IMG/VR virus record: IMGVR_UViG_3300042368_001013
Span: 1-64,000 of that record
Direction: 5' to 3' (one strand)
Length of the DNA: 64,000 bases
Source: a virus
Part shown: positions 2,323 to 48,198 of the stretch, piece after piece
Layout: the number at the start of each line of letters is the position of its first letter
How positions within the stretch are numbered: position 1 is the first letter of the stretch
Translations under genes and position numbers: made by a program
Notes under the pieces: model-generated
Databases searched by the model: none
Told to the model about the DNA's origin: nothing
What the model saw: the letters and a program-made list of their open reading frames with translations, nothing else

Positions 2323-2645
2323 TGGTATTGTTGATATTGGATTGAAATGCGTACAAGACGGGGGTTCGAATCCCCCCGACTCCATTAGCCTAAGTCAGAG
2401 AATCTGCAATCTTCTGAAAACGGCGAGCCAAGTCCTCGTAGCAGCGGGGCATTTCCCGAAGTCCTAGGCTTCGGGTCACCGGGGTCGAAAGGAATAGATT
2501 GGCGCAAAGTAATGAAGAAGGAGATACCCGACACGGGTAACAAGTGTCGTAAATAAACAGTTGCAAAAAATAATTGCTAACGAATTAGCAATGGCTGCTT
2601 AAAGCAGTGGGGTTCGCCCGGTTTCCCGCATCTGAAAACCGGGCT
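2323..2645 (+). ncRNA. ssrA: Circularly permuted (two-piece) tmRNA; tag (A)ANELAMAA*
   Basis: Acceptor piece 2323-2384 (T-arm GGGGGTTCGAATCCCCC, 3' strand CGACTCC-A) precedes coding piece starting GGGGTCG at 2481. G3-U70 pair, pk1 CCCGACACGGG...GTGTCG, resume context ATAATT-GCT at 2576, stop ending 2602. Confidence 0.92.
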
Positions 2646-15115: not shown

Positions 15116-15489
15116 TAGAGGGTAAGTAGGGGCTGTTTGTAGTGGTGTATGGGGTAAAAGGTTTTTAAAAAATTTAGAGAAAGTGAGAGTTAGACCCCAC
15201 CCCTCAAACACTCTCCAAGGCCCTTTAAATGCCTTTACAGCCCCTTTAAGCCATCCAAAGGACAGCACTCGCCTCTAAATCCCGTCCCTCTATAGGGCAT
15301 TCTAGCGAGTCAAGCAATTTTCTTTAAGATTTTAACAAATTTTTGAGAATTTTGAGCAATTTTTAAAACCCGTCCAGGCAAACCCCACAATCTGGGCCCT
15401 TAGAGAGCAATTGCCGTACAATATTAATTTTTATATCCTGTCCGCATCCTGTCCAGGGTTTTGGGGGAGCTGCGAGCCATCCGTAGCAT

Positions 15490-15810
15490 GTCCAGTAATC
15501 CCCCCTGATAGTTGTCTGATAGTTGTCCCGTTTCAGAAATTTTTGAAATTTCTTTGTGTGAATCGGGTCCGGTAATATTTTCAAATTTATTTGAAACCTT
15601 GGTGGGGCCGATAACCATAGAACCTGCCAGTCCGATAACCAGCAGTCCGGTAAGCATAGCCCCGATAACCATGAGCGTCCGATAACCCCCTGCCCACCCT
15701 CTCACAATTATTGGACACTTGGGCTGGGGGGTTATCGGTCGCATGAACAGTCCTATAAGTATACACCAGATCTGGGGGGAGTCAAGTACTAGACCACAAG
15801 TCCGATAAGC
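15490..15810. repeat. Cluster of GTCCGATAAC-like repeats and tandem CTGATAGTTGT(C) half-sites
   Basis: Copies at 15608, 15630, 15645, 15661, 15677, 15731 (inverted), 15750 and 15800; CTGATAGTTGT twice at 15505-15527. Confidence 0.8.
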
Positions 15811-15928
15811 TGGCCAGAGCTGAGCTCCTGGATCCAGGAACCCGGTCCAGTGAATTAATTAAATTATTATTATTGTCCCAGAAGCGCTCGACGGCCTCTC
15901 GACAGCTCCAGGTAACGTCCCGTCCAAT

Positions 15929-15983
15929 CTACTATCAGGCCGTCCGAATAAATCAAATTTCCTCTGAGGAAATTTGATAGTAG
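15929..15983. repeat. CTACTATCAG palindrome element, copy 1
   Basis: CTACTATCAG...ATCAAATTTCC-TCTGA-GGAAATTTGAT-AGTAG. Confidence 0.8.
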
Positions 15984-16058
15984 TCCAGGTACACAGCCAC
16001 CCAGGACTGGCTCTCTCCTTCCAGTCCTGGGCGACCATGTATGTCAATAGACTAGATC

Positions 16059-18236
16059 TTACCTGTCCCGGCGATCCCGGAACTTCATGCCCTCCGGGAA
16101 GCAGGGCAGTCCGTAGATCCCGGAGTCCATCTTGCGGATGGGCTGACCCGCCACGATGTCCACATACCGGGTGAGGAACACACGGCTACCTGCCCGCTTG
16201 CCCATCGTCTTGATGAACTGGTTCTTCACCTTGGTGAAGTTACCTCCGGTGGCAATCGCCTCCTCGTCCTTGACGGGCTTCGGGGTCTGAATGAGGAAGT
16301 ACGAATCGTAGCCGGGGAAGGTATCTTCGTGCAGGACAAGGCATCCCTCCTTGAACGCTTCCGCCGCAGCCTTGTACCGCTCCGAATCTCCAACGGTCAG
16401 ACCACCCTTGTAGTGATGGGAGATGGAATCGGCATTCTTCTGCTTCTCCTGTTCGCTCAAGCAGAACTGCTCAAAGCAGCGTTCCGTCAGGATACGAGTG
16501 GGCATCACATACATTCCAACGCATCGGGCGTTCAACTTGGTGCGGAGGGAATTGAGCATGGCGTAGATGACACCATCGGGCAGATTCGTCCTGCCGTTCT
16601 TGTTGTCGATGACGGTGACCGTATCAAGGATCTCGTTCGTCACGGTGAGGGAAGTACCCTCGCCGTACCAGTAGACTCCATCCTCCTTGGAGGTGTTGAT
16701 GTGGTTGGGGCAACCGTCCGTCACGACCATGATGGTCGGAATCTGAATGTTGTTCTCCTGCACCCATCCCGCCATGAACTGGGAAGTGAGGGCAATGCAC
16801 TCCACCGTGGGCGTACCGTTCAGGGTGAGGTAACGGGAAGTGGGGCGGGTCTGCTGCACATAGGTTTCGTAGATGTACGCGCACAGACGCTCACGCTTGG
16901 CCGCATCGTCCTTGGAGGAGGCAATGTTCAGCAGCCTAGCCGTACCGATGTGCATACCCGTGGGGCAGTCACGATTCAAAGCCCGTGCGCCCCATTCACG
17001 GTCGAACTCGTAGGAGAACGCATCGGGATTCTGCTTCCTCCATGCATCACACGCAGCCTGATACTCGGGATCAAGGTTGCCGTAGACATCGGTGTAGCCG
17101 AACACCTCAAATGGGATCTTCGCCTTCTCGCAGAACCACACCAACTGGAGAACCTGAAGGTAGGCGTGGCCGATGGTCGCACCCATGCTGCCGCTGAAGT
17201 CAAGCATGAACACGATGCCGTGGTTCTTGCCGTCCTGCTTGACGATCTTCGACAGGAAGATATCGTCATGGGTGCGGTACTGGTGGAGGCGGTCAAGGTT
17301 CAGCATCCCGGTCTGCTTCGGACGCTCACGGCGGATCTCGTCCGCAGCCTTCTTGCGCTCAAACTGGGCGACCATCTGACGGACGAACGCATCGGACTCG
17401 CGCACGAACTGGCGGTACTCCTCAAGGAGCAGCGGCCTGTTGCTGTTGCCCTCGTAGTCGTTGAGGATGGTTTCCGTGCTGACGATGTGCTTGGACAGAT
17501 CCTTGACTCCGGTGAGAGTGACCACCGCGTCCTGATACTGCGAACCGTCCTTGCGGCGGAAGTCACCGGGGACATTCGTCTTGTCGCCCATGATCTTGTC
17601 CTGCTCCTTCTCACCCTGCTTGCCACCCTTGGCAGCAGCAGCCTCCATGTCCTCGCGCATCTCCTTCATGGAAGGGTGCTTATACAGGAACTTGGCGACC
17701 TCAAACACCTGATCGTAATTGACCACGGCATCCACCATGTCCACGACCTCCTGCTCCGTCCCCTCAAAGGTCATGGGGATGAAGCCGGGAACGCCCCACT
17801 TGAAGTGGATGTTCAGGCGGTTGAGGAACCCGGCCTTCGTGAAGTCCATCTTCTTGAAGCCGAACATATCAATGTCTGCGATCTCCTTGTAGCCAAGGAA
17901 GAAGTCACGGCGAGTGCCGGGGAACTTCTGCTTCATCAACTTCTCAATGCGGACATCTTCGATGATGTTGGCAATGCGAGAGAGCAGCATGGGGTTGTAG
18001 CCGTCTGCCTCCGCAGCCTTCAGCAACTCATAGCCGCGCTCGTAGGGAGTCCACAGAGCGTGGCTGATCTCGTGGGCCACGAGCATGGTCTTGACGGTTT
18101 CGGACACATCCCACATGGGCATGACGAGGTGACGCGACTTCACATCGAACGATGCGGTTTCAGCGTCCTTGGAGAAGGAGAACGAAATGTTCTCGGATGC
18201 GAGAGCCTTGGCGAAGATGGAGAGAGAGGTGTTCAT
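16059..18236 (-). CDS. vWA-domain protein with N-terminal HExxH region (CobT-like partner of the AAA+ ATPase); probably leaderless, start MNTSLS
   Basis: HEISH, EDVRIE, MIDAS DFSGS, GTP and VVTDG motifs; ATG 6 nt below TTGACT-17-TACAAT. Confidence 0.85.
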   Translation of the reverse strand: MNTSLSIFAKALASENISFSFSKDAETASFDVKSRHLVMPMWDVSETVKTMLVAHEISHALWTPYERGYELLKAAEADGYNPMLLSRIANIIEDVRIEKLMKQKFPGTRRDFFLGYKEIADIDMFGFKKMDFTKAGFLNRLNIHFKWGVPGFIPMTFEGTEQEVVDMVDAVVNYDQVFEVAKFLYKHPSMKEMREDMEAAAAKGGKQGEKEQDKIMGDKTNVPGDFRRKDGSQYQDAVVTLTGVKDLSKHIVSTETILNDYEGNSNRPLLLEEYRQFVRESDAFVRQMVAQFERKKAADEIRRERPKQTGMLNLDRLHQYRTHDDIFLSKIVKQDGKNHGIVFMLDFSGSMGATIGHAYLQVLQLVWFCEKAKIPFEVFGYTDVYGNLDPEYQAACDAWRKQNPDAFSYEFDREWGARALNRDCPTGMHIGTARLLNIASSKDDAAKRERLCAYIYETYVQQTRPTSRYLTLNGTPTVECIALTSQFMAGWVQENNIQIPTIMVVTDGCPNHINTSKEDGVYWYGEGTSLTVTNEILDTVTVIDNKNGRTNLPDGVIYAMLNSLRTKLNARCVGMYVMPTRILTERCFEQFCLSEQEKQKNADSISHHYKGGLTVGDSERYKAAAEAFKEGCLVLHEDTFPGYDSYFLIQTPKPVKDEEAIATGGNFTKVKNQFIKTMGKRAGSRVFLTRYVDIVAGQPIRKMDSGIYGLPCFPEGMKFRDRRDR

Positions 18237-18294
18237 GCGTATATTGTAACCGATGTGGGGGGAGAAGTCAACCCACAAACAAAGATTTTTTTGC

Positions 18295-18368
18295 GTCCCA
18301 TAACGTCCGGCTACTATCAGGCTGTCCAATAAAAATCAGAAAGTCCAGACGGACTTTCTGATAGTAGC
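18295..18368. repeat. GTCCCATAAC box plus CTACTATCAG palindrome, copy 2
   Basis: GCTACTATCAG...ATCAGAAAGTCC-AGAC-GGACTTTCTGAT-AGTAGC. Confidence 0.85.
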
Positions 18369-18377
18369 TCACAGATG

Positions 18378-18409
18378 CTGCCTCTCCCCCCTTGCGGGGG
18401 GAGAGGCAT
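18378..18409 (-). terminator. Strong GC hairpin downstream of ORF 18418..18636
   Basis: TGCCTCTCCCCCC/GGGGGGAGAGGCA inverted repeat. Confidence 0.6.
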
Positions 18410-18417
18410 GAACAGCA

Positions 18418-18636
18418 TCAGACTGTGACGGGAGCAATCAGCGAGGTCAGGTTGTAGACCCCCTTGATGTCCGTCTTGCAGTCCTTCAGCACCCAAGTCG
18501 GGATGCCCTTCATGTTGATGGACTGCGCGATGTCAAGCAGGTTGAACTTGTTGAACGCAGCGATGTCAAGGCTGTTGGCCTCTGCGTAGTGCTTGGCTGC
18601 GGCGACGAAACGATTGCGCTTGTTGAGGTATGGCAT
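18418..18636 (-). CDS. Small protein resembling the N-terminal domain of the adjacent AAA+ ATPase
   Basis: KRNRF...IPTWVL...KGVYNL versus KRNF...LPAWLV...RGKYII. Confidence 0.7.
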   Translation of the reverse strand: MPYLNKRNRFVAAAKHYAEANSLDIAAFNKFNLLDIAQSINMKGIPTWVLKDCKTDIKGVYNLTSLIAPVTV

Positions 18637-18658
18637 TTTCTTTTTCTTTCTTTCTTGG

Positions 18659-20005
18659 TTAGGCGTTCATAGCGTACTGGGTGTCGGTGTCGGGGTTGGA
18701 CAACTTATCCAACTGTGCTTTCAATTCTGCAATCTTCTTCTGCTCTGCGGTCAGAGCGTTGACGGGGTTGCTCACCGGGGCATCCTTCATTCCCTCCGGG
18801 ACAGGGAGGATCGTGGGGTCGATCTTCGTGTAGAGGTTGAAGAACGCCTCCTTCGTGGACGCATCGAACCGCGTCAGCGTCAACTTGATGGCCTTCTCCT
18901 TGTCGCCAAAGATGGCGAACGCCTTGCACACTTCCTCCAAGCGGCGGGTGGTGATGATGTCATCCAGTCCGCCCTCCTTGAAGCCCATGCGGATCGTTTC
19001 CGCCCACTTCGTGAGGTACTGGGCGAACTCCTTGTCCTCCTTGCCGTATGCCTTCATCTTGCGGATGATGATACGCGCTTCGATGGTGCGATCCGCGTAG
19101 TCCTGCTCAAACCAGTAGGAGAAGCGGTCAAGGAACGCCTCGTTCATGCAGCGCGTACCCACAAACCGATCAGACTCACCCTTGCCCTTGGTGTTGGCAG
19201 TCGCCACCACATTGAAGCCCACGGCAGGCTTGATGAACATACCGATCTTCTTGATGTAGATGCCCTTGCCCTCAAGCACGGGCTGAAGGCACATCATGCG
19301 CTCCGTCCCAAGGTCGATCTCGTCAAGGAGGAGGATGGAGCCACGCTGCATGGCCTGAACCACGCCACCGAACACGAACTTCGTTTCGCCGTTGACGAGG
19401 CGGAAGCCACCGATGAGGTCATCCTCGTCCGTTTCGGCGGTGATGTTGACGCGAATGCACTCGCGGCCCGTGGAGGCGCAAATCTGCTCCACCATCGTGG
19501 TCTTGCCGTTGCCGGACATACCCGTGATGTAGACGGGAGCGAACTGCTTGGATGCGAGGATGGTGGAGATGTCATCGTGGTGACCCCACGGAACGAAAGT
19601 CTCGTTCTTGGCGGGGACGAGCGAAACATCGGAGGACGGCATGACGAGGTTGTAGGTGTTGCTGTTCATGTTGCTGATTGTATCACAAGTTTCGGAGGAA
19701 GTCAAGGTTTCGGAAGAAGATTCGGAAATATTTTCTTCCACGTTATCGGACTCTGCGGGAGTGTAGTCAAGGACAACCATTTCCGGGATGATGTACTTGC
19801 CACGACCCGCACGGCGGTTCTTGGGCTGCACCAGCCAAGCCGGGAGGACGCTGTAGCACTGCTCGCCAAGGGCATGGGACTGGGTGAGTGCGGCAAGGCA
19901 CTGCTCACGGGTGTAGACGGCTTCCCCGATGGTCTGCGGATTGCCGTACAAGAATTGAAGGTGGTTGAGGAAGTTACGCTTGCGAATGTCGATGTTGCTG
20001 TTCAT
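18659..20005 (-). CDS. cobS: MoxR/CobS-like AAA+ ATPase with extra N-terminal domain; internal shorter isoform predicted from 19669
   Basis: Walker A GMSGNGKT, Walker B LLLDEID, ATANTKG, EAFLDRF and TTRRL motifs. Confidence 0.88.
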   Translation of the reverse strand: MNSNIDIRKRNFLNHLQFLYGNPQTIGEAVYTREQCLAALTQSHALGEQCYSVLPAWLVQPKNRRAGRGKYIIPEMVVLDYTPAESDNVEENISESSSETLTSSETCDTISNMNSNTYNLVMPSSDVSLVPAKNETFVPWGHHDDISTILASKQFAPVYITGMSGNGKTTMVEQICASTGRECIRVNITAETDEDDLIGGFRLVNGETKFVFGGVVQAMQRGSILLLDEIDLGTERMMCLQPVLEGKGIYIKKIGMFIKPAVGFNVVATANTKGKGESDRFVGTRCMNEAFLDRFSYWFEQDYADRTIEARIIIRKMKAYGKEDKEFAQYLTKWAETIRMGFKEGGLDDIITTRRLEEVCKAFAIFGDKEKAIKLTLTRFDASTKEAFFNLYTKIDPTILPVPEGMKDAPVSNPVNALTAEQKKIAELKAQLDKLSNPDTDTQYAMNA

Positions 20006-20065
20006 GTCACAATCTTACCACACAATCTTCCAAAAGTCAATAGGCTAGAATATATTTTTTTCCAG

Positions 20066-20150
20066 GTCCTATAACTTCCCGTCCACTACTATCATAATAA
20101 TATAAACCATCCTCAGAAATTCGCTTAAAGGGCGAATTTCTGATAGTAGC
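20066..20150. repeat. GTCCTATAAC box plus CTACTATCA palindrome, copy 3
   Basis: CTACTATCA...TCAGAAATTCGC-TTAAAGG-GCGAATTTCTGA-TAGTAG. Confidence 0.85.
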
Positions 20151-20202
20151 TCAAAGAACAACCCCCGCTTGCGCGGGGGTTGTGAGGGACTGACCTAGCA
20201 TA

Positions 20203-20448
20203 TTAGCCGGTCGTGTTGTAGTAGTTCTTCTCCGACTTGCACTCGTTCGCCTTGCAGCACTTCTCAAGGGTCACGATGCGCTGCCACATCTTCTCGTTCT
20301 CGCTGTAGAGATCCTTGACCATTTCGTCTTGATGACGAATGATGTTGTTCAACTTCTCGTTCAGTCGAACGCGGAAGTAGGCGATGGCGAAGTAGGCGGC
20401 ACCTGCGAGGGTGATGACGGTAACGAGCGTGTTGAGATCAATATTCAT
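20203..20448 (-). CDS. Small membrane-anchored coiled-coil protein, probably leaderless
   Basis: N-terminal TM segment; ATG 6 nt below TTGACA-16-TATACT. Confidence 0.7.
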   Translation of the reverse strand: MNIDLNTLVTVITLAGAAYFAIAYFRVRLNEKLNNIIRHQDEMVKDLYSENEKMWQRIVTLEKCCKANECKSEKNYYNTTG

Positions 20449-20498
20449 GTCTTTAGTATACCTCGGGGTTTGGGGTTGTCAAGCAACGAAACAGAAAA

Positions 20499-20574
20499 TA
20501 GAAGGGGCGGGAGTTGCACCCACATATTCACGCTTATAAGGCATGCGCTCTAACTACGATTCAGCCACCCTTCT
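20499..20574 (-). tRNA. tRNA-Ile(TAT) with atypical T-loop
   Basis: Acceptor AGAAGGG/CCCTTCT, anticodon loop CTTATAA, T-arm GGGTGCAACTCC. Confidence 0.8.
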
Positions 20575-20575
20575 G

Positions 20576-20658
20576 TGGTGGAGCCTTCATACGGATGCTC
20601 CGGTGTCCGTGCAACCGTAGGTTGCCTCTATACGGTTATTTTAGTTACCGCCAAACTC
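20576..20658 (-). ncRNA. Candidate tRNA-mimic RNA ending in ACCA
   Basis: GAGTTT/AGGCTC closing stem, three internal hairpins, 3' CCACCA immediately before tRNA-Ile. Confidence 0.5.
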
Positions 20659-20708
20659 ATTAATAATATAACTCATTGAGGTACATTGTACCACCTCTTT
20701 CTTGTTTG

Positions 20709-20855
20709 TCAAGTCTGGGGGAAAGGAATCACGACCTGAAGCATGCAGTCGTTGCACAGTTCGAATGCTTCCCAATCTTCACCATCGGGATAGTCAATGC
20801 GAACCTTGGTCAGTTCTTCCTCAAACTCTTCGTTGCATCCGCAGCAAGTGTTCAT
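20709..20855 (-). CDS. 48-aa CxxC...CxxC zinc-finger-like protein
   Basis: MNTCCGCNEEF...LCNDCM; GAGGA ribosome-binding site upstream. Confidence 0.6.
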   Translation of the reverse strand: MNTCCGCNEEFEEELTKVRIDYPDGEDWEAFELCNDCMLQVVIPFPQT

Positions 20856-20875
20856 GGGTTCCTCTCGTGGTTAGG

Positions 20876-20949
20876 CGTTCCCGGTTGGATTCGAACCAAC
20901 GACCTGCCGCTTAGAAGGCGGCTGCTCTATCCTGCTGGGCTACGGGAAC
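20876..20949 (-). tRNA. tRNA-Arg(TCT)
   Basis: Cloverleaf, anticodon loop CTTCTAA. Confidence 0.95.
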
Positions 20950-20952
20950 AAA

Positions 20953-21042
20953 TGGAAGGGGTACTTACGGCCTTTGCGGAAAGAATATGTTTTTCTTCTA
21001 ACATATTCCGTGACCCGACTATATCCGACTATTCGCCCTTCC
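20953..21042 (-). ncRNA. Candidate structured RNA with tRNA-like acceptor stem
   Basis: GGAAGGG/CCCTTCC-A closing stem and internal GAATATGTT/AACATATTC helix, between tRNA-Leu and tRNA-Arg. Confidence 0.55.
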
Positions 21043-21075
21043 GTGTTGGGTGCCTTGAAGAAGGACACCCGGTAA

Positions 21076-21148
21076 TAGCGCGAGTGGGAGTCGAACCCAC
21101 ACTTTGTTGATTTTGAGTCAACTGTCTCTGCCTTTGGACTACCGCGCC
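21076..21148 (-). tRNA. tRNA-Leu(CAA) lacking the long variable arm
   Basis: Anticodon loop CTCAAAA, 5-nt variable region. Confidence 0.85.
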
Positions 21149-21160
21149 ATGATCCCCATT

Positions 21161-21433
21161 CTAGAACAGATCGGGGGTGTTGTCAAGTTTGAAATCTGAA
21201 TTTATTTTTTCATAAAATTCAGAGTTGTGTGGGACGATCTTCTCATGAAGCCTGCCCACGTTGATGTGTTCGCCTACGTCATCCTTCGCATCGTAGTAGG
21301 CATCTATGAGTTCTTTTGGAGGATTGGAGTTTCCTTCCAACCAGTACTCCATCACCTGCTCCATCACGATTGCGAGTCGGTCGTATGCACGGCATGCGCC
21401 AGTAAGAAGTTCGATTGTTTCTTCGTTTGTCAT
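21161..21433 (-). CDS. Hypothetical protein (start MTNEET)
   Basis: ORF between tRNA-Lys and tRNA-Leu. Confidence 0.65.
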   Translation of the reverse strand: MTNEETIELLTGACRAYDRLAIVMEQVMEYWLEGNSNPPKELIDAYYDAKDDVGEHINVGRLHEKIVPHNSEFYEKINSDFKLDNTPDLF

Positions 21434-21435
21434 AA

Positions 21436-21508
21436 TGGGTCCGGTGGGACTTGAACCCACAACCAATAGATTAAAAGTCTACTGCGCTACCGATTGCGCT
21501 ACGAACCC
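21436..21508 (-). tRNA. tRNA-Lys(TTT)
   Basis: Cloverleaf, anticodon loop CTTTTAA; promoter TTGACA-17-TATAAT at 21545..21517. Confidence 0.95.
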
Positions 21509-21546
21509 GAATGCCCATTATAACCGATGGGCTGCGGCTTGTCAAG

Positions 21547-21903
21547 TCAGGAGTCGAAGTCCTCGTCCGCATCCGGGTCAAACGGGTAGTGTTCCCGCTC
21601 CGTCTGACCTGCGTACTCCTCGTAGGTCATCTCCATGATCTGCGCGAGCATCATCATGAAGGCGGCGAACCCCAAGTGAATCTCGGGCATCCGTCCATCC
21701 GCCTTCTCACCCACCATCCAGTCGGTGACGTACTGGATCCCCTTGGCGACGATCATGCGCTGACCCTCGTGCTTGTAGAAGTTCGGGTGTTCACCTGCGA
21801 ACTGCATCAGGGTCTTGACGACATCCAACGGGTCGGGCTTGAAAGCCCCCATGTCGATGTCCTTGCGGCTGAAGAAACCATCGTACTTGTTCTGCGGTGA
21901 CAT
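21547..21903 (-). CDS. Hypothetical early protein
   Basis: GC3-rich ORF; shares F..EHPN motif with the upstream gene. Confidence 0.7.
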   Translation of the reverse strand: MSPQNKYDGFFSRKDIDMGAFKPDPLDVVKTLMQFAGEHPNFYKHEGQRMIVAKGIQYVTDWMVGEKADGRMPEIHLGFAAFMMMLAQIMEMTYEEYAGQTEREHYPFDPDADEDFDS

Positions 21904-22118
21904 TAGCGAATCTCCTTGAGGGTGGTGTGCAGGGACATGACGAACTCGTACTCCTCATCGGTGACCATATCAGGACCGCTGATCTGCGTCAGGATGAAGT
22001 AGCCTTGAGCGAGGCGGGCAATGTCCTCATCGTGATCTGCCCAGTTGGGGTGTTCGGTGACGAAGTTTGCGATCTCGTTGATGAGGTCGGAGATGTCGGT
22101 GGTGGTGGGCTTTCTCAT
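21903..22118 (-). CDS. Hypothetical early protein, probably leaderless
   Basis: ATG 6 nt below TTGACA-17-TACAAT. Confidence 0.75.
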   Translation of the reverse strand: MRKPTTTDISDLINEIANFVTEHPNWADHDEDIARLAQGYFILTQISGPDMVTDEEYEFVMSLHTTLKEIR

Positions 22119-22432
22119 GTCGGTATTGTAACAGGTTCGGGGTACGGTGTCAAGGTCACGCTGCGAAAATGTTTTACTTGTTTTGCGAGGCGGATGAAGG
22201 TCTGGAACTTCTCATCCGGCATCTCAACCAACAGGTCTAGATTGTAGGTTCCGATGCCGAAAACAAAACTCTGATCTAACGATGTGACGACATGAACATC
22301 GAACATTCCGGTCGGGTCTGACAAGGCCAGGCATTGAAACACGCTCTTGACCATCTTCTGCAATCTGCGCCGATGCCATCCCATGGAATTGGTCAACGGG
22401 GAGTGCATCTCAATGTGGACGGTGGCTTTCAT
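22115..22432 (-). CDS. Hypothetical early protein
   Basis: ATGA overlaps at both ends; the 3' end contains the next promoter. Confidence 0.6.
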   Translation of the reverse strand: MKATVHIEMHSPLTNSMGWHRRRLQKMVKSVFQCLALSDPTGMFDVHVVTSLDQSFVFGIGTYNLDLLVEMPDEKFQTFIRLAKQVKHFRSVTLTPYPEPVTIPT

Positions 22433-22668
22433 TCGAAGTCCCCGTCATCGATGAAGTCGGGAACATCCCGGTCAAGGTCATCGTCACCGTAGCAGTAGTC
22501 ATCGGCCTCGTAGTCGCCCATCATGCGGTCGATCTCATCGGGCGTGTAGCCTTCCTGCTCCAGCATGTCGCGGATCTCGCTGTCGCTCATGCCATCGAGG
22601 TCGCAGTCATCGTAGGGCAGCACAAGTTCGGTGTCGTTGGACGGGTAGTCGTTGGTGTGATCGTTCAT
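22429..22668 (-). CDS. Highly acidic small protein, probably leaderless
   Basis: Asp/Glu-rich; ATG 6 nt below TTGACA-17-TATCAT. Confidence 0.75.
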   Translation of the reverse strand: MNDHTNDYPSNDTELVLPYDDCDLDGMSDSEIRDMLEQEGYTPDEIDRMMGDYEADDYCYGDDDLDRDVPDFIDDGDFE

Positions 22669-22726
22669 GTCCGCATGATACCATATCCAAAGAAGGCTGT
22701 CAAGTCCAAAACAAAATATATTTTCT

Positions 22727-22785
22727 GTCCGATAACGTCCTGTCCGGGCTACTATCAGCGTGGCCCTCCCACGCTGATAGTTGTC
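22727..22785. repeat. GTCCGATAAC box plus CTACTATCAG palindrome, copy 4
   Basis: GCTACTATCAGCGTGG-CCCTC-CCACGCTGATAGTTGTC. Confidence 0.85.
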
Positions 22786-22787
22786 AA

Positions 22788-23084
22788 TTAGTTCATGTTC
22801 AGCATTTTCTCCGTCTTGCGAGAGAATGCTGCGATCCCGTCAATCTTATCCTCACCAATCAGGATCCAGTCCTTCTTGATGATGTCGAAGGCGCAGATGT
22901 ATCCCTCGGCGGTGTGGCGAGTGCCATTAGGGAGATCGCCCCCCAGTTGCTTGATGAACACGGGGTCAGTCGTGATCTCACGCGAGGTTGAGGTGCCGTC
23001 CTTCTTCCTGAACGACACAAAGAGCGTATCGTTGTTGGAGAGGGCGACGCGAAGAATCGTGGACATCGGAAGTTCGGTGGTCAT
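22788..23084 (-). CDS. SH3/WYL-like beta-barrel protein (DUF2693-like)
   Basis: V.F.KKDG..R..T...FD..K.DW pattern. Confidence 0.6.
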   Translation of the reverse strand: MTTELPMSTILRVALSNNDTLFVSFRKKDGTSTSREITTDPVFIKQLGGDLPNGTRHTAEGYICAFDIIKKDWILIGEDKIDGIAAFSRKTEKMLNMN

Positions 23085-23191
23085 GTTCGTATTGTGCCTT
23101 GTGTTCGGGTGAAAGCAAATGGGTGTGCAGATTTATTTCAAACTTCCTCCCGGCCCCACAGTGGGGCCGGGAGGCTACATGCACCACCATG

Positions 23192-23581
23192 TTAGATCGG
23201 AAAGTTGACCTTGCCAAACTCGGCCAAGTGTCGGCGCAGGCACTCCTTCACGATGTCCTGCAGCGGCAGGACGGGGATGCCCGTATCACGGAGGGAGGTC
23301 TCCGATGCCTTGGCGTAGTAGGACACAGATCCGTCACGGACGCTTTCCACGAATTCTTCCCAGTTCAGACCCAGTTCCGTGACGATCATGAGGACGAGGG
23401 TCTTCTCGGCATCCGTGAACCATCCGAACGGCAGGGACACGGTGATCTCGCACAGGGCAAGGGCCGCGTTGACCTCGGCGGGGTTGTCCTTGAACTCCGG
23501 CGTGTTGTTGGCGGTCAGGACGAGGGAAACAACGAGGTCATCAATCTTGGCGAGGCGGACGGGCTTGGTGGTGTTCTTCAT
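23192..23581 (-). CDS. Hypothetical early protein
   Basis: AAGGA ribosome-binding site, GC3-rich; hairpin downstream at 23146-23175. Confidence 0.7.
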   Translation of the reverse strand: MKNTTKPVRLAKIDDLVVSLVLTANNTPEFKDNPAEVNAALALCEITVSLPFGWFTDAEKTLVLMIVTELGLNWEEFVESVRDGSVSYYAKASETSLRDTGIPVLPLQDIVKECLRRHLAEFGKVNFPI

Positions 23582-23599
23582 GGTGGTGTTCCTTGTGGG

Positions 23600-23848
23600 T
23601 TAGGCGTTGAGGCACTTCTTCATGCGTTCGTCTGCTCGGCGGGACATATCCGCATCCAACTCACTCGCCAACTTTGCTTCTTCCTTCATGCGGCGGAGGA
23701 GGTACTGGAGCGCCCGCAGGTCGTGTTCGTTCGTGTTTTCTGCGAGGTTGCCCAAGTACCAAAGCGAGGAGGTGACATAACCGTAGGCGTAGGCGTGGTC
23801 GTGGGTGACGGAGGCGGGGATCTTGACGGTGGTGGTGCTGTTCTTCAT
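23600..23848 (-). CDS. Hypothetical early protein, probably leaderless (MKNSTTT)
   Basis: ATG 6 nt below TTTACT-17-TACAAT. Confidence 0.75.
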   Translation of the reverse strand: MKNSTTTVKIPASVTHDHAYAYGYVTSSLWYLGNLAENTNEHDLRALQYLLRRMKEEAKLASELDADMSRRADERMKKCLNA

Positions 23849-23927
23849 GTCGGTATTGTAACAGGTCGGGGTGCGAAAGTAAAGGGGGACAGAAAGAATA
23901 TTTCGCTTTCTGTCCCCCCACAGGGGT

Positions 23928-24176
23928 TCAGGTGAGCGGGATCCCGTACTTTGCCTCAAGGGCTTCCTTCAGTCCGGCGAGAACCTTCTCGCGGTTGCCC
24001 TTCAGACCGTATTCCTTCTTGGCGAGGGCGTAGCAGGAGACGCCACGGGTGAGGCGCATCGGGGTGCCACGGGCAGCGGTCTTGATTTCGAACTTCAGAC
24101 CGTTGTAGATCATCAGTTCACGGTAGGCGCAGATCTGTGCGGGAGTGTTCAGGACGATGTCGTTGGTGGTGGTCAT
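23928..24176 (-). CDS. Hypothetical early protein, probably leaderless (MTTTND)
   Basis: ATG 6 nt below TTGCAT-17-TACAAT. Confidence 0.75.
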   Translation of the reverse strand: MTTTNDIVLNTPAQICAYRELMIYNGLKFEIKTAARGTPMRLTRGVSCYALAKKEYGLKGNREKVLAGLKEALEAKYGIPLT

Positions 24177-24234
24177 GCGTAGATTGTATCACACCTTGCC
24201 GGAAAATGCAACCACAAAGAAAGAAATATTTGGA

Positions 24235-24300
24235 GTCCCATAACGTCCAGGTCGTCCAGACAACTATCAGCCAGCCCTCGGAGGGCTGGCTGATAGTAGC
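24235..24300. repeat. GTCCCATAAC box plus ACTATCAG palindrome, copy 5
   Basis: GACAACTATCAGCCAGCCCTC-G-GAGGGCTGGCTGATAGTAGC. Confidence 0.85.
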
Positions 24301-24437
24301 TCAGCCCCCTCTAGCCATTTCCCTTTTCCCCTCCCTCCTTGCCTTCCGGGGGTCCCGGCTCTTCTTTCCCCAGGTCTTGGGGCGAAGCCGGATTCCCTCC
24401 CGGAAGGCATCGTGGACGAATTTACCGGGACGGTGGT

Positions 24438-24983
24438 TCATTCGGCCTTCCCCCGAATGATGATCCACAACAGGGCTTGCATCGTGGCCGCGTCCATGTT
24501 GTAGGCCGATGCCACTTCGCGGACGGCGTTAGCAATGATCCGATATTCCGTCTTATTCGGAGCATCCTTGCCAAGTCCTGCGGCACGGCACATCCACACA
24601 TCCACAACCACCGCGTCACGGTCTCCGGCGATGGCACGGGCGAACGCATTCGTCTTGGGGCCACGCAGTCCGTCGAATCCTTCGCGGACGCATCGGTCTG
24701 CAGCCTCCACGTGGGAACGCAGTCCCTTCGGCGTGATACCCTGCGCGTACTCGTGCGCCTTACGCTTATTGTGCGCCCACGTGACGCGGGGCGAGAACGC
24801 GGAGACAACGCTGCACGAAATTTCCATGCTCCAATCGGGGCGAATGAAGCACAGACGACGGGCGAAGTCTCCGGCTTCAACGTACCACGCATCGGCGGAC
24901 GCATGATCGAAGAGGGTAGCGGTGGAGAGGAGGGAACGGAAACGGTTCGAAACGGTGGTGGTGGTGGTGGTGGTGCTGTTCAT
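24438..24983 (-). CDS. Helix-hairpin-helix glycosylase-like phage protein, probably leaderless (MNSTTTTTTT)
   Basis: SAFSP, GPKT.AF, VVVDVWM and QALLW motifs. Confidence 0.65.
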   Translation of the reverse strand: MNSTTTTTTTVSNRFRSLLSTATLFDHASADAWYVEAGDFARRLCFIRPDWSMEISCSVVSAFSPRVTWAHNKRKAHEYAQGITPKGLRSHVEAADRCVREGFDGLRGPKTNAFARAIAGDRDAVVVDVWMCRAAGLGKDAPNKTEYRIIANAVREVASAYNMDAATMQALLWIIIRGKAE

Positions 24984-25051
24984 GCGTACATTGTACCATG
25001 TCATGCCGTCCATGTCAATAGGTGGCGCCGAAATATTATAATATTCATTCC

Positions 25052-25115
25052 GTCCCATAACCATACCGTCCTCGACAACTATCAGCCAGCCCTCCGAGGG
25101 CTGGCTGATAGTAGC
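25052..25115. repeat. GTCCCATAAC box plus ACTATCAG palindrome, copy 6
   Basis: Palindrome identical to copy 5 except for the central base. Confidence 0.85.
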
Positions 25116-25189
25116 CCATATAAACAACCTAGCCCCGAACGAATCGGGGCAGGGACGAATCCTCTTCGGTTTGTACGAGCACCACCTCG

Positions 25190-25387
25190 TTATTTCGGTT
25201 CGGCTCGCTTGAGGATTACGGGCGTGATGTAGGCCATTGCCCACATGAGGCACACGCTCGGGATCATTGCCCAGTCGAAGCGATGGGCCGTCGCCTCCGT
25301 GATAGCGACCGAGGAGATGAGAGTGGCGAGAGCCACGAAGAGGAAGGTGATGACGTGTCGGACGGTGGTGGTGATGGTGGTGTTCAT
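25190..25387 (-). CDS. Small two-TM membrane protein, probably leaderless (MNTTITTT)
   Basis: ATG 6 nt below TTGACT-17-TACAAT. Confidence 0.7.
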   Translation of the reverse strand: MNTTITTTVRHVITFLFVALATLISSVAITEATAHRFDWAMIPSVCLMWAMAYITPVILKRAEPK

Positions 25388-25418
25388 GGGTGTATTGTAC
25401 CAGTTAGTGGTGCGGAAG

Positions 25419-25829
25419 TCAAGCCCCCGGAAACGAAAGAACCTGATACTTTGCGCCGGGCTTACGCTTGGACTGCGCGGCCCCGCTGTCGCGGCTGTCG
25501 ATGTGGTTCGCCGCAGCAAGGAAGCCGTAGGCAATGGCGCGCATCTCTGCGGCGTTGAGGGCCATGCTAACCTTCTCGTCACCGATGCCCAAGATGTTCG
25601 CGGTGGAGGAGCAGACAGCCGATGCGTAGACACGCACGGAGTACGGGCCCACCGGGATGACGAACGCAGCACCACGGTCACCTTCAAAGGTGACGCGGGT
25701 GTAGTTGCTGCGGTTGGCGATCTTGCATTCGCCAATGGTGACATTGCGTTCCGCGGTGCGGAGGAAGTCAGGGGTGCGAGAGGAGGAGTGGACGATAGAA
25801 ACGGCGTTGGAGAAAGTGGTGCAGGTCAT
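25419..25829 (-). CDS. Hypothetical early protein, probably leaderless (MTCTT)
   Basis: ATG 6 nt below TTGACA-17-TACAAT. Confidence 0.7.
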   Translation of the reverse strand: MTCTTFSNAVSIVHSSSRTPDFLRTAERNVTIGECKIANRSNYTRVTFEGDRGAAFVIPVGPYSVRVYASAVCSSTANILGIGDEKVSMALNAAEMRAIAYGFLAAANHIDSRDSGAAQSKRKPGAKYQVLSFPGA

Positions 25830-25935
25830 GCGTAGATTGTACCATGAGCAGGTGCGAATGTCAAGGGGTGGAAGAAAGAAATTTATTTCTTTGATTGGGC
25901 TTGACATGGAAGGCGGAGTATGGTATCATGCGGGC

Positions 25936-26205
25936 ATGTGCAACACCACCACCGACCCGAACGAATTCGAACACTTCCCCTGCGACTGCCACCGCCCGGA
26001 GTTCGCCTACACGGACTCACTGTGCCCGATGTGCGAGGAGCAGCGGGAGCGCGAGCAGGAGGCCAAGCGCGAGGCGCGCAAGCAGCACGATGATGAGTAC
26101 GCAGCAGATAACTCTGCGTTCATCGACGCGGCTAGCCGGATGAGCCCCGAAGACTGGGACGCGGACAACGACTGGCTAGCATCAGCCGGTTGGGGTGAGA
26201 TGTAA
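25936..26205 (+). CDS. Acidic Cys-containing early protein, probably leaderless (MCNTTT)
   Basis: ATG 6 nt below TTGACA-17-TATCAT; C-terminus LASAGWGEM. Confidence 0.75.
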   Translation: MCNTTTDPNEFEHFPCDCHRPEFAYTDSLCPMCEEQREREQEAKREARKQHDDEYAADNSAFIDAASRMSPEDWDADNDWLASAGWGEM

Positions 26206-26276
26206 GCCCCGAAGAAATATTCAAACTTCCAACGCCCACCCTTGACATGGGGTGGGCGTTGTGTTACAATATACGC

Positions 26277-26498
26277 ATGAGCACCACTCACAACAACCCG
26301 GCTGAAACCTCCCGCCCCTGCTGCTGCGTTTGCGGCGCTGATCACGTGGACGATAACGTTCGCGCTACCGAGCACGGTACGCTGTGCGTCATGTGCGTGG
26401 ACGATGTGCGCGCAGACATGGCATGGGACGCGCACGAGCGCGCCATGGGCTACGAAGGCGACGACGACCCCTACTGGGAGCAGCATGCGGAGGGCTAA
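26277..26498 (+). CDS. Zinc-finger-like acidic early protein, probably leaderless (MSTTHNN)
   Basis: CxxC...CxxC; ATG 6 nt below TTGACA-17-TACAAT. Confidence 0.75.
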   Translation: MSTTHNNPAETSRPCCCVCGADHVDDNVRATEHGTLCVMCVDDVRADMAWDAHERAMGYEGDDDPYWEQHAEG

Positions 26499-26511
26499 CC
26501 TCCCAGCCCCC

Positions 26512-26547
26512 AGATGCCCACCCCGAAGGGGTGGGCATCTTTGTTTT
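26512..26547 (+). terminator. Intrinsic terminator
   Basis: AGATGCCCACCCC-GAA-GGGGTGGGCATCT then TTGTTTT. Confidence 0.8.
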
Positions 26548-26819
26548 CAGAAATAATATTATTCTATTTGACTGATGGGTCACCCGCTATCGAGTTTGGC
26601 CTGTCCGAGTAGTGATTTGGGTCCCTTCTGGCGGGGTGTTATCGGACGGGCTAGCCCCTCCCTCTCAAATTTTCTTAAATTTTCTCAAATATTCTTGATG
26701 GTATAAAAATTTTTTGGCCACCCCCCACGACCCCAAACCTTAAAATACGTGGGATGCCATAAAAAAATTTGGGCCCCCGAAAGGACCCAAAAGTTTATCT
26801 AATCTAATGAGAGTGGAAG

Positions 26820-34200: not shown

Positions 34201-34860
34201 TCCCGGAGAAGGGCCGTCACCTGGCTCGCCATTATCTACACCACCATGTCCACCAAATCTACTATCAAGATTAAAATCAGCTCCCGCTCCTGCACCAGAC
34301 CCAACCACATATTCTCCACCTATTTGAAGCGCTTGTGTATTATTTCCCTCTTCTATTAAACCCTCTACTATACTACCAGTTCCATATGCTACCGCACCAC
34401 CACCCCAACCAGCAAGAGGAAATCCACCACCACCTCCATATGGATCTTGAGTAGATGTGGAAAAGTTGGTATGGATACCACCTGTGCCACCTCCTCCAAC
34501 AAAAACGGACATCGTAATTGTTGTTGTGATATTAAATGGTACAAGATTAAAATCAATGTAAGCACCATTTCCACCATAGCCTTCTCTTGGTGCTCCACCA
34601 CCAGAACCACGCAACATCATTTTTATTCTTCTAGAACTATCTTTTGCAATTGATAATCCCGTTTCACCAATACCTGTAACGGTAAATGGAAAATGAGGTT
34701 CATCTAATCCTGTTGTAGATGCTGTTGGTGGAAAATCATTAAAAATAATATTACTTCCAACACGCTTATAGTATTTTGTTGTATATTCATAACATTTGAT
34801 AGCAATGTAATGTTTTACAAGCGGATTTTCTTCTTTACAGCAGCAACCTTTTTTAGTCAT
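31201..34860 (-). CDS. Large Gly-rich and Cys-rich protein, possible fibre/adhesin
   Basis: N-terminal GCCC, glycine-rich GGGG domain, dozens of Cys in the C-terminal two-thirds. Confidence 0.75.
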   Translation of the reverse strand: MTKKGCCCKEENPLVKHYIAIKCYEYTTKYYKRVGSNIIFNDFPPTASTTGLDEPHFPFTVTGIGETGLSIAKDSSRRIKMMLRGSGGGAPREGYGGNGAYIDFNLVPFNITTTITMSVFVGGGGTGGIHTNFSTSTQDPYGGGGGFPLAGWGGGAVAYGTGSIVEGLIEEGNNTQALQIGGEYVVGSGAGAGADFNLDSRFGGHGGVDNGEPGDGPSPGNAATQTQGGAGGANAGAGYARVGGYGYRPTPSGNIPIQNVGGGGGAGYFGGGGGGPNSSGGGGSSTKFDIFSQNPIDQGFDGTSIGPGSRCSPFFEKLNKDSGIGANNLGRYLQAINTEYVSFFNGQPGQGAEYHRTRWCPCNESQSTNDVRGVFPNGPNYICLSEGQVSLITGEAFANLPDYNSIFSAGATDVKLSFELNGERYILVTWLDDDFTDPYDLYYCTLGCEPEYIADGIPSNVKWFVPTTNVFANYSDSRNFFKNLYEDYGIDLSTVTGCCDIFIGERICRPPNFNCTSTIDPQGNLQGCYCSDPDTAPKYKSICRSGVDTDSPFIAIDEPSGFYYLCIPAFGWRRFGNDSVNTLYDFYDGFNSENQINLGNSLSYYADADTLDIDQLKQQLCDDSGSNSNVTIICNTGPSDGDCICRVVFNNDYSFPDPEGINGFLTFIHSNAKLCVRNLYGVGGNSSCGFCPEEEAVPLELITTFSFNACTQRRICDVEGCWDGDQSCYQKCNITPLVCNTPFPFNLTGLFAGIKKSLSNLPNYIFTNLYRAGPLLMDSKTKNVTYTPQNILTNPCDSGIPTTGCFDATFTGFKAHIERTPCLSTDAVKAICCDQCGCQKEQCEMAQYVTYDNVIVEHKSYETQMCIYISKQTEEYEATAMEVVLNPCLFAGMTNNDMLLKAEQLLKLEKTSYIKKICGENCTLNGYRIKVCKQCVDLVGAPISSAANIINLCTAPFATAYPIDDSGWYGDRIMTCGSDCCGCEDQSPKIKDGDNLTLTYSIVGGTVKGTFNFKSPKYKCCVTFRADPICDTQDGSEETDCYTFDGSFTPAYIEGVFISASGVSYPEWKNGTRWNFVVETPDNFCFQEAGGPRGGQSCSVIKCSQYVFSDDPNNCNADTKGCCSERTGCGDNAKSCSDVQDITQFCDLCQPYTCCNPGVDYTDCVIQGFGGNSSGCSGTCLSQADGGPTPCSGCKCQINKIGQNQDTPCITDYGTISVF

Positions 34861-47391: not shown

Positions 47392-48198
47392 ATGGTTTAC
47401 TTACGTCAATACCCCATAGCAAGTTCAAGTTTAACTAGCGAAGTTCCATATTGGTTAGTTTTTTATGCTGCTGATTATTCATTAAGAGCAGAAAACAGAA
47501 CTCGTATAGGTATAGCCTCCAGAGCTCATTCTAAATTAGTCTTACCATTTCCAAAAGAACCTGGATATTCTTTACGCCATGAATTTGGAGAAGGAACTAA
47601 TCCAGTTGGTCCAGTTCTTTCTATGGCCGCATTAAATAATTCTGGTGGAGATTTTGAACTTTTGTGGAATAGAATAATTGATCCGGCAAAATTTCAAAAT
47701 GAATATATGTATGCCACTACTACATATAGAAGATTTTCTAACGTAACAGAAGCCACAATGGTTTCTGAAGCAAGAAGAGAATACAATTTTGAATATATTT
47801 TTGTTCCAAAATCTGCAAACGAAAGCATAGAAGTTAGAGATATTGTTGGAACATTTAGAAAATCATCATATCCTGTAGTGGTTGCAGGTTTGCCAGAAAG
47901 ATCGTATCCACAATCACTTTGGACGTTAAGAGTAGCAAAAGGCACTCCAATTGGAGGTGGAGATTTAGATTTAAACTTGACTGCTGATTGGCTTGGTGAA
48001 CCAATGCCATTGGTTTTAACTTCCATGGTAGTTAAATATAGTGATGCATCAGATCCCATTGTAAGGACTTTGGCAAATGGTTATTCTTCTGTAACTCTTT
48101 TAGGTTTAACGTTTAGAGAGTTTGAAACTGGAACTTTCAAACCTGGTACAGATCAAGGTGCAATGCTACTATCAAAGTCAGAAATTATAGGTATGTAA
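47392..48198 (+). CDS. g48: Baseplate tail-tube cap gp48-like
   Basis: R.Y.F...F.PKS..E...I...F, VLT...V.Y and L.L.F.E motifs; synteny. Confidence 0.7.
   Translation: MVYLRQYPIASSSLTSEVPYWLVFYAADYSLRAENRTRIGIASRAHSKLVLPFPKEPGYSLRHEFGEGTNPVGPVLSMAALNNSGGDFELLWNRIIDPAKFQNEYMYATTTYRRFSNVTEATMVSEARREYNFEYIFVPKSANESIEVRDIVGTFRKSSYPVVVAGLPERSYPQSLWTLRVAKGTPIGGGDLDLNLTADWLGEPMPLVLTSMVVKYSDASDPIVRTLANGYSSVTLLGLTFREFETGTFKPGTDQGAMLLSKSEIIGM

Follow-up and report, generated by a model that had tools for sequence, protein, structure and literature searches.

Six copies of a repeated module lie between early genes in a 64-kb stretch of virus DNA (the window), which forms the first part of the 91.8-kb IMG/VR virus record IMGVR_UViG_3300042368_001013 and belongs to what is estimated to be about half a genome. 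In each module a 10-nt word and its inverted copy, the arms, enclose a hairpin of variable sequence upstream of a promoter. The module is probably a composite, in which a terminator-promoter boundary cassette resembling the promoter-early stem-loops (PeSLs) of T4-type phages is combined with a pair of nick sites. Nine metagenomic contig ends fall on one phosphodiester bond of the word, and on this evidence a sequence-specific nuclease most likely nicks the arms, which would be paired sites on opposite strands. The source is an uncultured, T4-like phage: a T4-type large terminase, portal, tail sheath and baseplate wedge proteins are encoded in the window, and the portal reaches at most 48% identity, to the portals of Methylophilales phage Melnitz and cyanomyoviruses.

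Read on the minus strand, a module begins at the end of a gene, often with a G+C-rich terminator, and continues with the left word, CTACTATCAG, a perfect hairpin that has the ATCAG of the left word as its foot, and the inverted word, CTGATAGTAG. There follow GGAC repeats ending in GTTATNGGAC (the box), an A/T tract, a -35 hexamer, 17 nt, a -10 hexamer, 6 nt and an ATG. In the long form (modules 1 to 3) the hairpin closes on a near CTGAT, and a T-run and spacer separate it from the full right word; the short form (modules 4 to 6) is one simple hairpin of 35 to 39 nt. The initial annotation of the window had picked out all six modules, with start positions off by no more than 8 nt. It had also seen alternative pairings in copies 1 to 3, and these hold up, with a near CTGAT or TTGAT and the far full arm as pairing partners; copies 4 to 6 are simple hairpins.

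Contig ends at one bond of the word

We inspected about 100 true contig ends, 39 from 28 JGI metagenome contigs encoding the CobT N-terminus and 60 from 30 IMG/VR records, together with one further contig (L255) from beyond these two sets. Nine ends, on nine contigs from eight metagenomes and at no fewer than three module positions, fall on the same bond, 5'-CTACT^ATCAG-3', read on either strand. With 12 qualifying bonds in 11.4 kb and about 100 ends, uniform breakage is estimated to give fewer than 0.1 such ends. Contig L152 starts at the ATCAG of the module 3 left word, window position 20144; with the first 200 residues of the CobT-like protein as the query, it matches the window at 100%. 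L158, L159 and L162 stop after the right word's CTGAT or CGGAT in the module after CobT, the orthologue of module 1, and at the orthologue of the same module L169 ends with the ATGAT of a short-form module. The first bases of the IMG/VR contig G008 are ATCAG; those of G011 are ATCAT, the complement of a terminal ATGAT, at the right-word bond of the module 3 orthologue. G017 (IMGVR_UViG_3300007735_000800) and L255 both end at CTGAT. Since the 126-kb G017 carries the same module near both of its ends (1-170 and 126128-126277), it is probably a closed circle opened at the cut site, though IMG/VR lists it as linear and 70% complete.

All nine ends share a single geometry, in that the whole palindrome interior is retained. 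This would follow if each strand were cut, because the duplex would then part into 5' overhangs that are filled in by end-repair during library preparation. The opposite geometry predicts contigs that end at CTACT or start at AGTAG. Long-form modules are free of inverted or direct repeats long enough (21 nt or more) to break a de Bruijn assembly, and the cut in the right word sits 15 to 25 nt from the inner hairpin; with no repeat of assembler k-mer length and a cut away from the hairpin, a computational or hairpin artefact is unlikely. The fragments to the left and right of a module would overlap by 25 to 92 nt, so that many assemblies would still span it. Few further contig ends came from searching IMG/VR with the C-terminal and N-terminal parts of CobT.

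Several observations weigh against cleavage. Contig G027, the only one to come near the opposite geometry, stops at CTACTA, one base off the bond. Four ends in the JGI set lie inside hairpin interiors, so hairpins as such also disturb assembly, and many contigs, the window's own included, cross all modules. The localized nicks known from phages are on one strand only. No nuclease gene is linked to the word, and the neighborhood of the one candidate discussed below is absent from the window's half-genome. Finally, a terminator whose feet are bound, uncut, by a protein explains everything except the contig ends.

This last point leads to a purely regulatory cassette of the PeSL type, in which the hairpin would terminate transcription, the feet and the GGAC/GTTATNGGAC array would bind a non-nuclease factor of transcription or termination, and the contig ends would be artefacts. 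It would account for the matching PeSL layout (stem-loop, A/T-rich stretch, sigma-70-like early promoter and start codon), for T-runs after 31 of 42 long-form stems, for the strictly oriented box 23 or 33 nt from the -35 hexamer, and for the four ends that lie in hairpin interiors rather than at the word. We nevertheless regard it as rather unlikely. Nine ends at one bond and in one geometry, some of them 15 to 25 nt from the inner hairpin, are not expected of hairpin artefacts; the short form has no T-run, and modules 4 and 5 have no other terminator either; and the right arm, which lies past the T-run and should rarely be transcribed, is as invariant as the left. The initial annotation had proposed that the arms are recognized by a protein. 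Recognition is supported, but binding alone is not what the evidence points to; it points to cleavage, as paired nicks, a reading absent from that annotation.

Programmed nicks in phage DNA have been known in T5 for sixty years and were later found in phiKMV-like phages and in phage tf; to our knowledge they have no accepted function. The word and its cut position resemble these sites in several respects: a short asymmetric consensus, a probable cut at one fixed bond, and a location in non-coding or early DNA. Localized single-strand interruptions are described for T5/BF23, phiKMV-like phages and Pseudomonas phage tf (PMC3517423), with the nick consensus TACT^RTGMC in tf and TACTATGAC in LUZ24-type phages (PMC3517423). 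A TACT^RT core and the position of the cut are shared by the tf and LUZ24-type sites and CTACT^ATCAG, which is a resemblance and not a test of homology. Whereas the known nicks are unpaired, on one strand, and found in siphoviruses and podoviruses, the sites described here form inverted pairs on both strands, around a hairpin, in a T4-like myovirus. What is new is the pairing of sites on both strands across a free palindrome, the placement at early-unit borders in a T4-like phage, and the link to apparently leaderless promoters. The word and cut position together define a candidate nicking enzyme of 10-nt specificity.

Six records, the window's own and five larger relatives, were searched for enzymes; all six are incomplete, at 44 to 76% by CheckV estimate. 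GIY-YIG was not found in the window's record or four larger relatives, nor HNH_3 in five records. Three relatives that are 70 to 76% complete share an HNH_5 protein of about 180 residues at 72 to 74% identity. It belongs to a conserved trio (L224, L225 and L226; relatives G007, G017 and G019), its neighbors being a zinc-ribbon protein about 100 residues long and a 182-residue protein that weakly matches RuvC; in L225 the HNH_5 gene lies at 1393-1971 on the minus strand. The HNH_5 protein is only a candidate for the nuclease, because its nearest homologues are in the cultured cyanophages S-CBWM1 and S-CRM01, in which no paired arms were found.

If a sequence-specific nuclease nicks CTACT^ATCAG on both strands, then opposed sites 25 to 92 nt apart across the palindrome would let the duplex part into two ends with long 5' overhangs, and these could fold back on themselves. 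Such folding would explain an interior that is perfectly paired on both strands and free in sequence. Breaks of this kind would render the cassette borders recombinogenic, in keeping with the homogenization of adjacent promoters within genomes described below, and could also feed recombination-dependent replication. Nicking would in this way be tied to gene-cassette architecture, and the combination of fixed feet and a free stem would have a testable reason, namely that both strands fold once cut. More tentatively, we suggest that the phage might deliberately break its own chromosome at every early-unit border, the ends folding into protected, unit-specific, hairpin-like termini that prime recombination-dependent replication or cassette exchange and gene conversion. 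If true, cutting and refolding at unit borders would be a site-specific system not described for any phage.

The bond can be placed on each of the six modules, all on the minus strand. Module 1 (15929..15983, long form) follows the CobT-like gene and a G+C-rich hairpin; its left word, CTACTATCAA, at 15983-15974 is followed by the inner hairpin and TTATT and by the right word at 15938-15929, and the predicted nicks are at minus 15979/15978 and plus 15933/15934. In module 2 (18311..18367, long form) the words lie at 18367-18358 and 18320-18311, the terminator hairpin with its T-run at 18362-18335, and the predicted nicks at minus 18363/18362 and plus 18315/18316. Module 3 (20086..20149, long form) has its left word at 20149-20140 and its right word, ATGATAGTAG, at 20095-20086, with predicted nicks at minus 20145/20144 and plus 20090/20091. 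Module 4 (22749..22783) is a short form with a 35-nt hairpin, the left word CAACTATCAG at 22783-22774, the right word at 22758-22749 and predicted nicks at minus 22779/22778 and plus 22753/22754. The short-form module 5 (24261..24299) carries its left word at 24299-24290 and its right word, CTGATAGTTG, at 24270-24261; nicks are predicted at minus 24295/24294 and plus 24265/24266. Module 6 (25076..25114), a short form and near-copy of module 5, has words at 25114-25105 and 25085-25076, predicted nicks at minus 25110/25109 and plus 25080/25081, and an upstream terminator at 25150-25132. Five of the six had been described as following a terminator-like hairpin. This is correct only for modules 1, 2, 3 and 6; module 4 directly follows a stop codon, and module 5 directly follows the stop of a 46-codon basic open reading frame.

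Conservation of the arms and pairing of the interior

With up to one mismatch, CTACTATCAG has 16 matches in the window against 2.2 expected, a number that none of 100 shuffles reached. Scanning the whole 91.8-kb record, as had been proposed, gave 12 copies of exact CTGATAGTWG, all of them at 15505-25114, so that every exact arm copy lies at 15.5-25.1 kb. The module family comprises 65 distinct modules in 16 genomes, and about 100 once JGI contigs are added. Inverted copies of a word with the consensus C(T/a)ACTATC(A/c)(G/a) flank the hairpin throughout. Eight bases of the left word, CTACTATC, are invariant across the family, and the right word has the same eight on the opposite strand, with an occasional A at position 2. 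Positions 9 and 10 covary with their partners (CAG/CTG, CCG/CGG and CAA/TTG). In 103 modules eight positions per strand are invariant, and the flanks are without information. The description of conserved arms around variable, perfect stems therefore extends from the six window copies to about 100 modules in relatives, with invariant arms and a covarying interior.

The interiors in the window all differ, except that modules 5 and 6 are one loop base apart, and their inner stems are perfect over 10 to 14 bp. Across the family the interior differs in almost every module, with perfect stems of 10 to 15 bp and loops of 2 to 9 nt; shuffled interiors gave a best stem of 4.7 bp on average and 9 at most. 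A reading as miniature inverted-repeat transposable elements or other transposons was rejected, because module interiors are unrelated to each other. Counted within stems only, since a count based on minimum-free-energy folds was too noisy, the modules have 1176 Watson-Crick pairs, 3 G.T and no A.C, against 673 Watson-Crick pairs, 13 G.T and 6 A.C in the ordinary terminators upstream. The near-absence of G.T fits a need for both DNA strands to fold. Invariance, Watson-Crick stems and the contig ends, along with a hairpin-free copy in a conserved non-coding region (see below), bear out the earlier suggestion that the arms are sequence-recognized DNA sites.

That the palindromes act as DNA rather than RNA had also been proposed. 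For the arms this stands; it does not for the long-form hairpin, which together with a T-run (at least four T in the six bases after the stem, in the 31 long-form modules counted above) is an ordinary intrinsic terminator. A promoter and terminator scan accordingly called the inner hairpin of module 2 a terminator, and no short-form module, window modules 4 to 6 included, has a T-run after the hairpin. Because the long-form hairpin can terminate in the ordinary way, roles in RNA and in DNA are not exclusive. A function confined to RNA, as a signal for the processing, stability or antitermination of read-through transcripts (an RNase III-type site or a nut/put-like one), is very improbable. The long perfect stems, 15 to 19 bp in the short form, would suit it, as would the transcription of the left arm as the terminator foot. 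Against this, G.U is nearly absent (3 of 1179 pairs), the right arm comes after the T-run, the word is found hairpin-free and invariant elsewhere, and the contig ends come from DNA. Rfam at gathering thresholds matched only tRNAs and a permuted tmRNA in the window, and nothing at the modules.

Uptake sequences (DUS/USS) of Neisseria and Haemophilus are 10-nt words recognized by a protein and occur as inverted pairs in terminators. They offer a parallel for a protein-recognized 10-nt word kept in intergenic DNA as inverted pairs in terminator hairpins. In those sequences, however, the word is itself the stem and is bound, whereas here it lies at the foot and flank of a stem of free sequence and seems to be cleaved.

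When 185,579 bacterial and archaeal genomes were scanned for the paired arms, 16 hits turned up, scattered over unrelated taxa; about 17 are expected by chance (an estimate), and none of the 16 had a box or homology to the window. Since these hits are at chance level and unrelated to the phage, the paired arms are not a host-borne repeat. About 40 of 66 pattern hits in IMG/VR are likewise due to chance, without homology. Outside the island that holds the modules, lone CTACTATCAA words occur within genes on the plus strand at 34259-34268 and 48166-48175; two is the chance level, and single-strand nicks would be predicted there if the word is a nick site.

Promoters and exchange between modules

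The linker of module 2 (18236..18310, minus strand, as are all the linkers) is typical of all six. Its GGAC repeats begin 2 nt past the right word, the box GTTATGGGAC lies at 18304-18295, the -35 hexamer TTGACT at 18271-18266 and the -10 hexamer TACAAT at 18248-18243, and the ATG of a CobT-like gene is at 18236. In the module 3 linker (20005..20085) the box is at 20075-20066, the -35 at 20040-20035, the -10 at 20017-20012 and the ATG of a CobS-like AAA+ gene at 20005. Module 4 (linker 22668..22748) has three GGAC and a box at 22736-22727, the -35 at 22703-22698, the -10 at 22680-22675 and ATG at 22668. The GGAC repeats of module 5 (linker 24176..24260) are 9 to 10 nt apart, with the box at 24244-24235, the -35 hexamer TTGCAT at 24211-24206, the -10 at 24188-24183 and ATG at 24176. 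In the module 6 linker (24983..25075) the box at 25061-25052 stands 33 nt before a -35 at 25018-25013; the -10 is at 24995-24990, and the ATG at 24983 starts a gene for a DUF7178 protein.

The box, GTCCNATAAS, has 11 matches where 0.7 are expected. Its spacers to the -35 hexamer are 14, 23, 25, 23, 23 and 33 nt in modules 1 to 6, a set of values one below those of the initial annotation; the steps of about 10 nt noted there are correct, and the box is strictly oriented. Promoter-like sites number 26 in 12 kb (7.7 expected), and of the roughly 15 strong promoters in the island 6 are headed by a module. Exactly 6 nt separate the -10 hexamer from the ATG of a long open frame in 47 of 51 module promoters from 12 genomes, and the same spacing is found at other island promoters. 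With an ATG at this distance, transcription should start at or next to its A and the mRNA should be leaderless. The module-headed early genes thus appear, from promoter spacing, to form a whole battery of leaderless genes.

GGAC is strand specific, occurring 103 times in 51 linkers against 3 occurrences of its complement GTCC. The first copy lies 1 to 4 nt past the right word, the distance from one copy to the next is mostly 10, 9 or 5 nt, and the last copy, with which the box ends, begins at position -62 or between -72 and -74 relative to the ATG. All six module promoters have the array and nine other strong leaderless-type promoters of the island lack it; it therefore belongs to the module and not to promoters in general. 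It may serve the promoter, the right-hand site or both, and the activator role among the options of the initial annotation is conjectural.

PeSLs have been described in the T4-type phage pairs RB49/phi1, PST/T4 and nt-1/KVP40, and their exchange was attributed to homologous recombination or mini-circles rather than to programmed cuts (Arbiol 2010, PMC2839356; Comeau 2014, PMC4122927). The initial annotation drew this comparison, and both the layout and the homogenization of promoters within genomes agree with it. PeSLs and modules alike consist of a stem-loop followed immediately by an A/T-rich stretch and a sigma-70-like early promoter, recur between small early or accessory genes in T4-like phages, have stem feet whose consensus is specific to the lineage, and show signs of recombination between copies. 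Unlike in PeSLs, the fixed part here is a word of 8 to 10 nt whose inverted copies are up to about 90 nt apart, and a second motif, the GGAC array with its box, is present. The modules also differ in having no Shine-Dalgarno sequence, the 6-nt spacing leaving no room for a leader, and in that DNA ends map to one bond of the word.

Identity over promoter positions -45 to -13 is 47% between different loci of one genome, 37% between orthologous loci and 32% otherwise. Of 51 promoters, 26 have a paralogue from the same genome as their nearest neighbor and 7 have an orthologue. In relative L034 (IMGVR_UViG_3300042937_000802), four of five module promoters have had the -35 region swapped for a shared 19-nt stretch, AATTCTACACACACTCCCC, that precedes an extended -10 box, and the fifth has a variant of this stretch; relative L039 has a shared promoter core of its own (TGCAGTCACGACA). 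To judge from these cores, the data point to a promoter type swapped genome-wide. Homogenization within genomes requires copying between modules. Breaks at the borders would supply a physical mechanism for this and for PeSL-type shuffling, so far ascribed to plain homologous recombination.

The same data could be taken to favor a cassette recombination site, attC-like or REP/IS200-like, where a recombinase or HUH transposase would cut the foot of the hairpin and move promoter-gene cassettes. As in integron attC sites and in REP/REPIN elements, conserved outer inverted repeats surround a free, paired interior of variable length at gene or cassette borders. The foot of the inner hairpin is where the cut would fall, promoters are homogenized, and alignments with relatives break at modules. 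One orthologous pair, the single clear case found, has identical stems and an inverted loop (GTCT versus AGAC). We consider such a site improbable all the same, although the initial annotation had raised it. Neither an IntI-type integrase nor any tyrosine recombinase (PF00589) or Y1 transposase (PF01797) was found in the six incomplete records, the lack of a Y1 HUH transposase setting the modules apart from REP/RAYT and IS200/IS605, and the five records searched for GIY-YIG gave none. Unlike attC, the modules have no R'/R'' GTTRRRY core, their arms being CTACTATC; the stems are perfect, without extrahelical bases, and every cassette has its own promoter. In the comparison of cassette order between relatives that the initial annotation called for, several alignment breaks fall at modules, but breaks also occur among tRNA genes, and gene order in the island is largely constant across relatives with 70 to 96% CobS identity.

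The G+C-rich island and its surroundings

The modules lie in an island at 15900-26700, mostly on the minus strand, with 50 to 58% G+C (16-26 kb) in a genome of about 33%. Nearly all island genes are on the minus strand; they include those for the CobT-like protein and the CobS-like AAA+ ATPase, four tRNA genes, and genes for small proteins without recognized domains. The G+C content of third codon positions (GC3) is about 0.8 and that of positions 1 and 2 about 0.45, so the jump is mostly one of codon usage. An island with this GC3 in a 33% G+C genome, and with genes that appear uniformly leaderless, is unusual in itself. A chimeric assembly was rejected as the source of the jump, as the island is syntenic in more than 12 independent contigs, where its gene order recurs. 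Megablast of the island against 50,697 phage records gave no match, and no DNA-binding or nuclease domain was found in the small island proteins with Pfam and PHROGs.

After module 1, a conserved non-coding region of 0.7 kb (15230..15928, minus strand) reuses the same words. It holds a promoter at 15785-15758 and a second near 15310-15280, a covarying hairpin with the box, in both orientations, on its arms, GGTTATCGGAC repeats at 15630-15810, two tandem copies of CAACTATCAG 11 nt apart at 15525-15505, and GGACRGGAT repeats with A/T tracts. In relatives the region has one invariant CTACTATC site that is free of any hairpin. It could be an origin or a regulatory hub.

The four island tRNAs (Ile-UAU, Arg-UCU, Leu-CAA and Lys-UUU) read A/U-rich codons. 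The 46-codon open reading frame that ends at the module 5 left word (24301-24441, minus strand) is very basic, rich in K and R, and about 90% identical in nucleotide sequence in relatives; its product is possibly a small nucleic-acid-binding protein. The CobS-like gene contains, at 19677-19751, a full promoter that has an inverted box and is aimed at an in-frame ATG; it would make two isoforms of the protein possible. Elsewhere in the window, a permuted, two-piece tmRNA gene (2324-2602, plus strand; Rfam RF04321, 78.6 bits) adjoins tRNA-Gly and tRNA-Tyr genes. Where the island ends on the right, one leaderless-type promoter and its neighboring gene of 73 codons (26242-26498, plus strand) run in the opposite orientation, with a two-way terminator downstream at 26512-26540.

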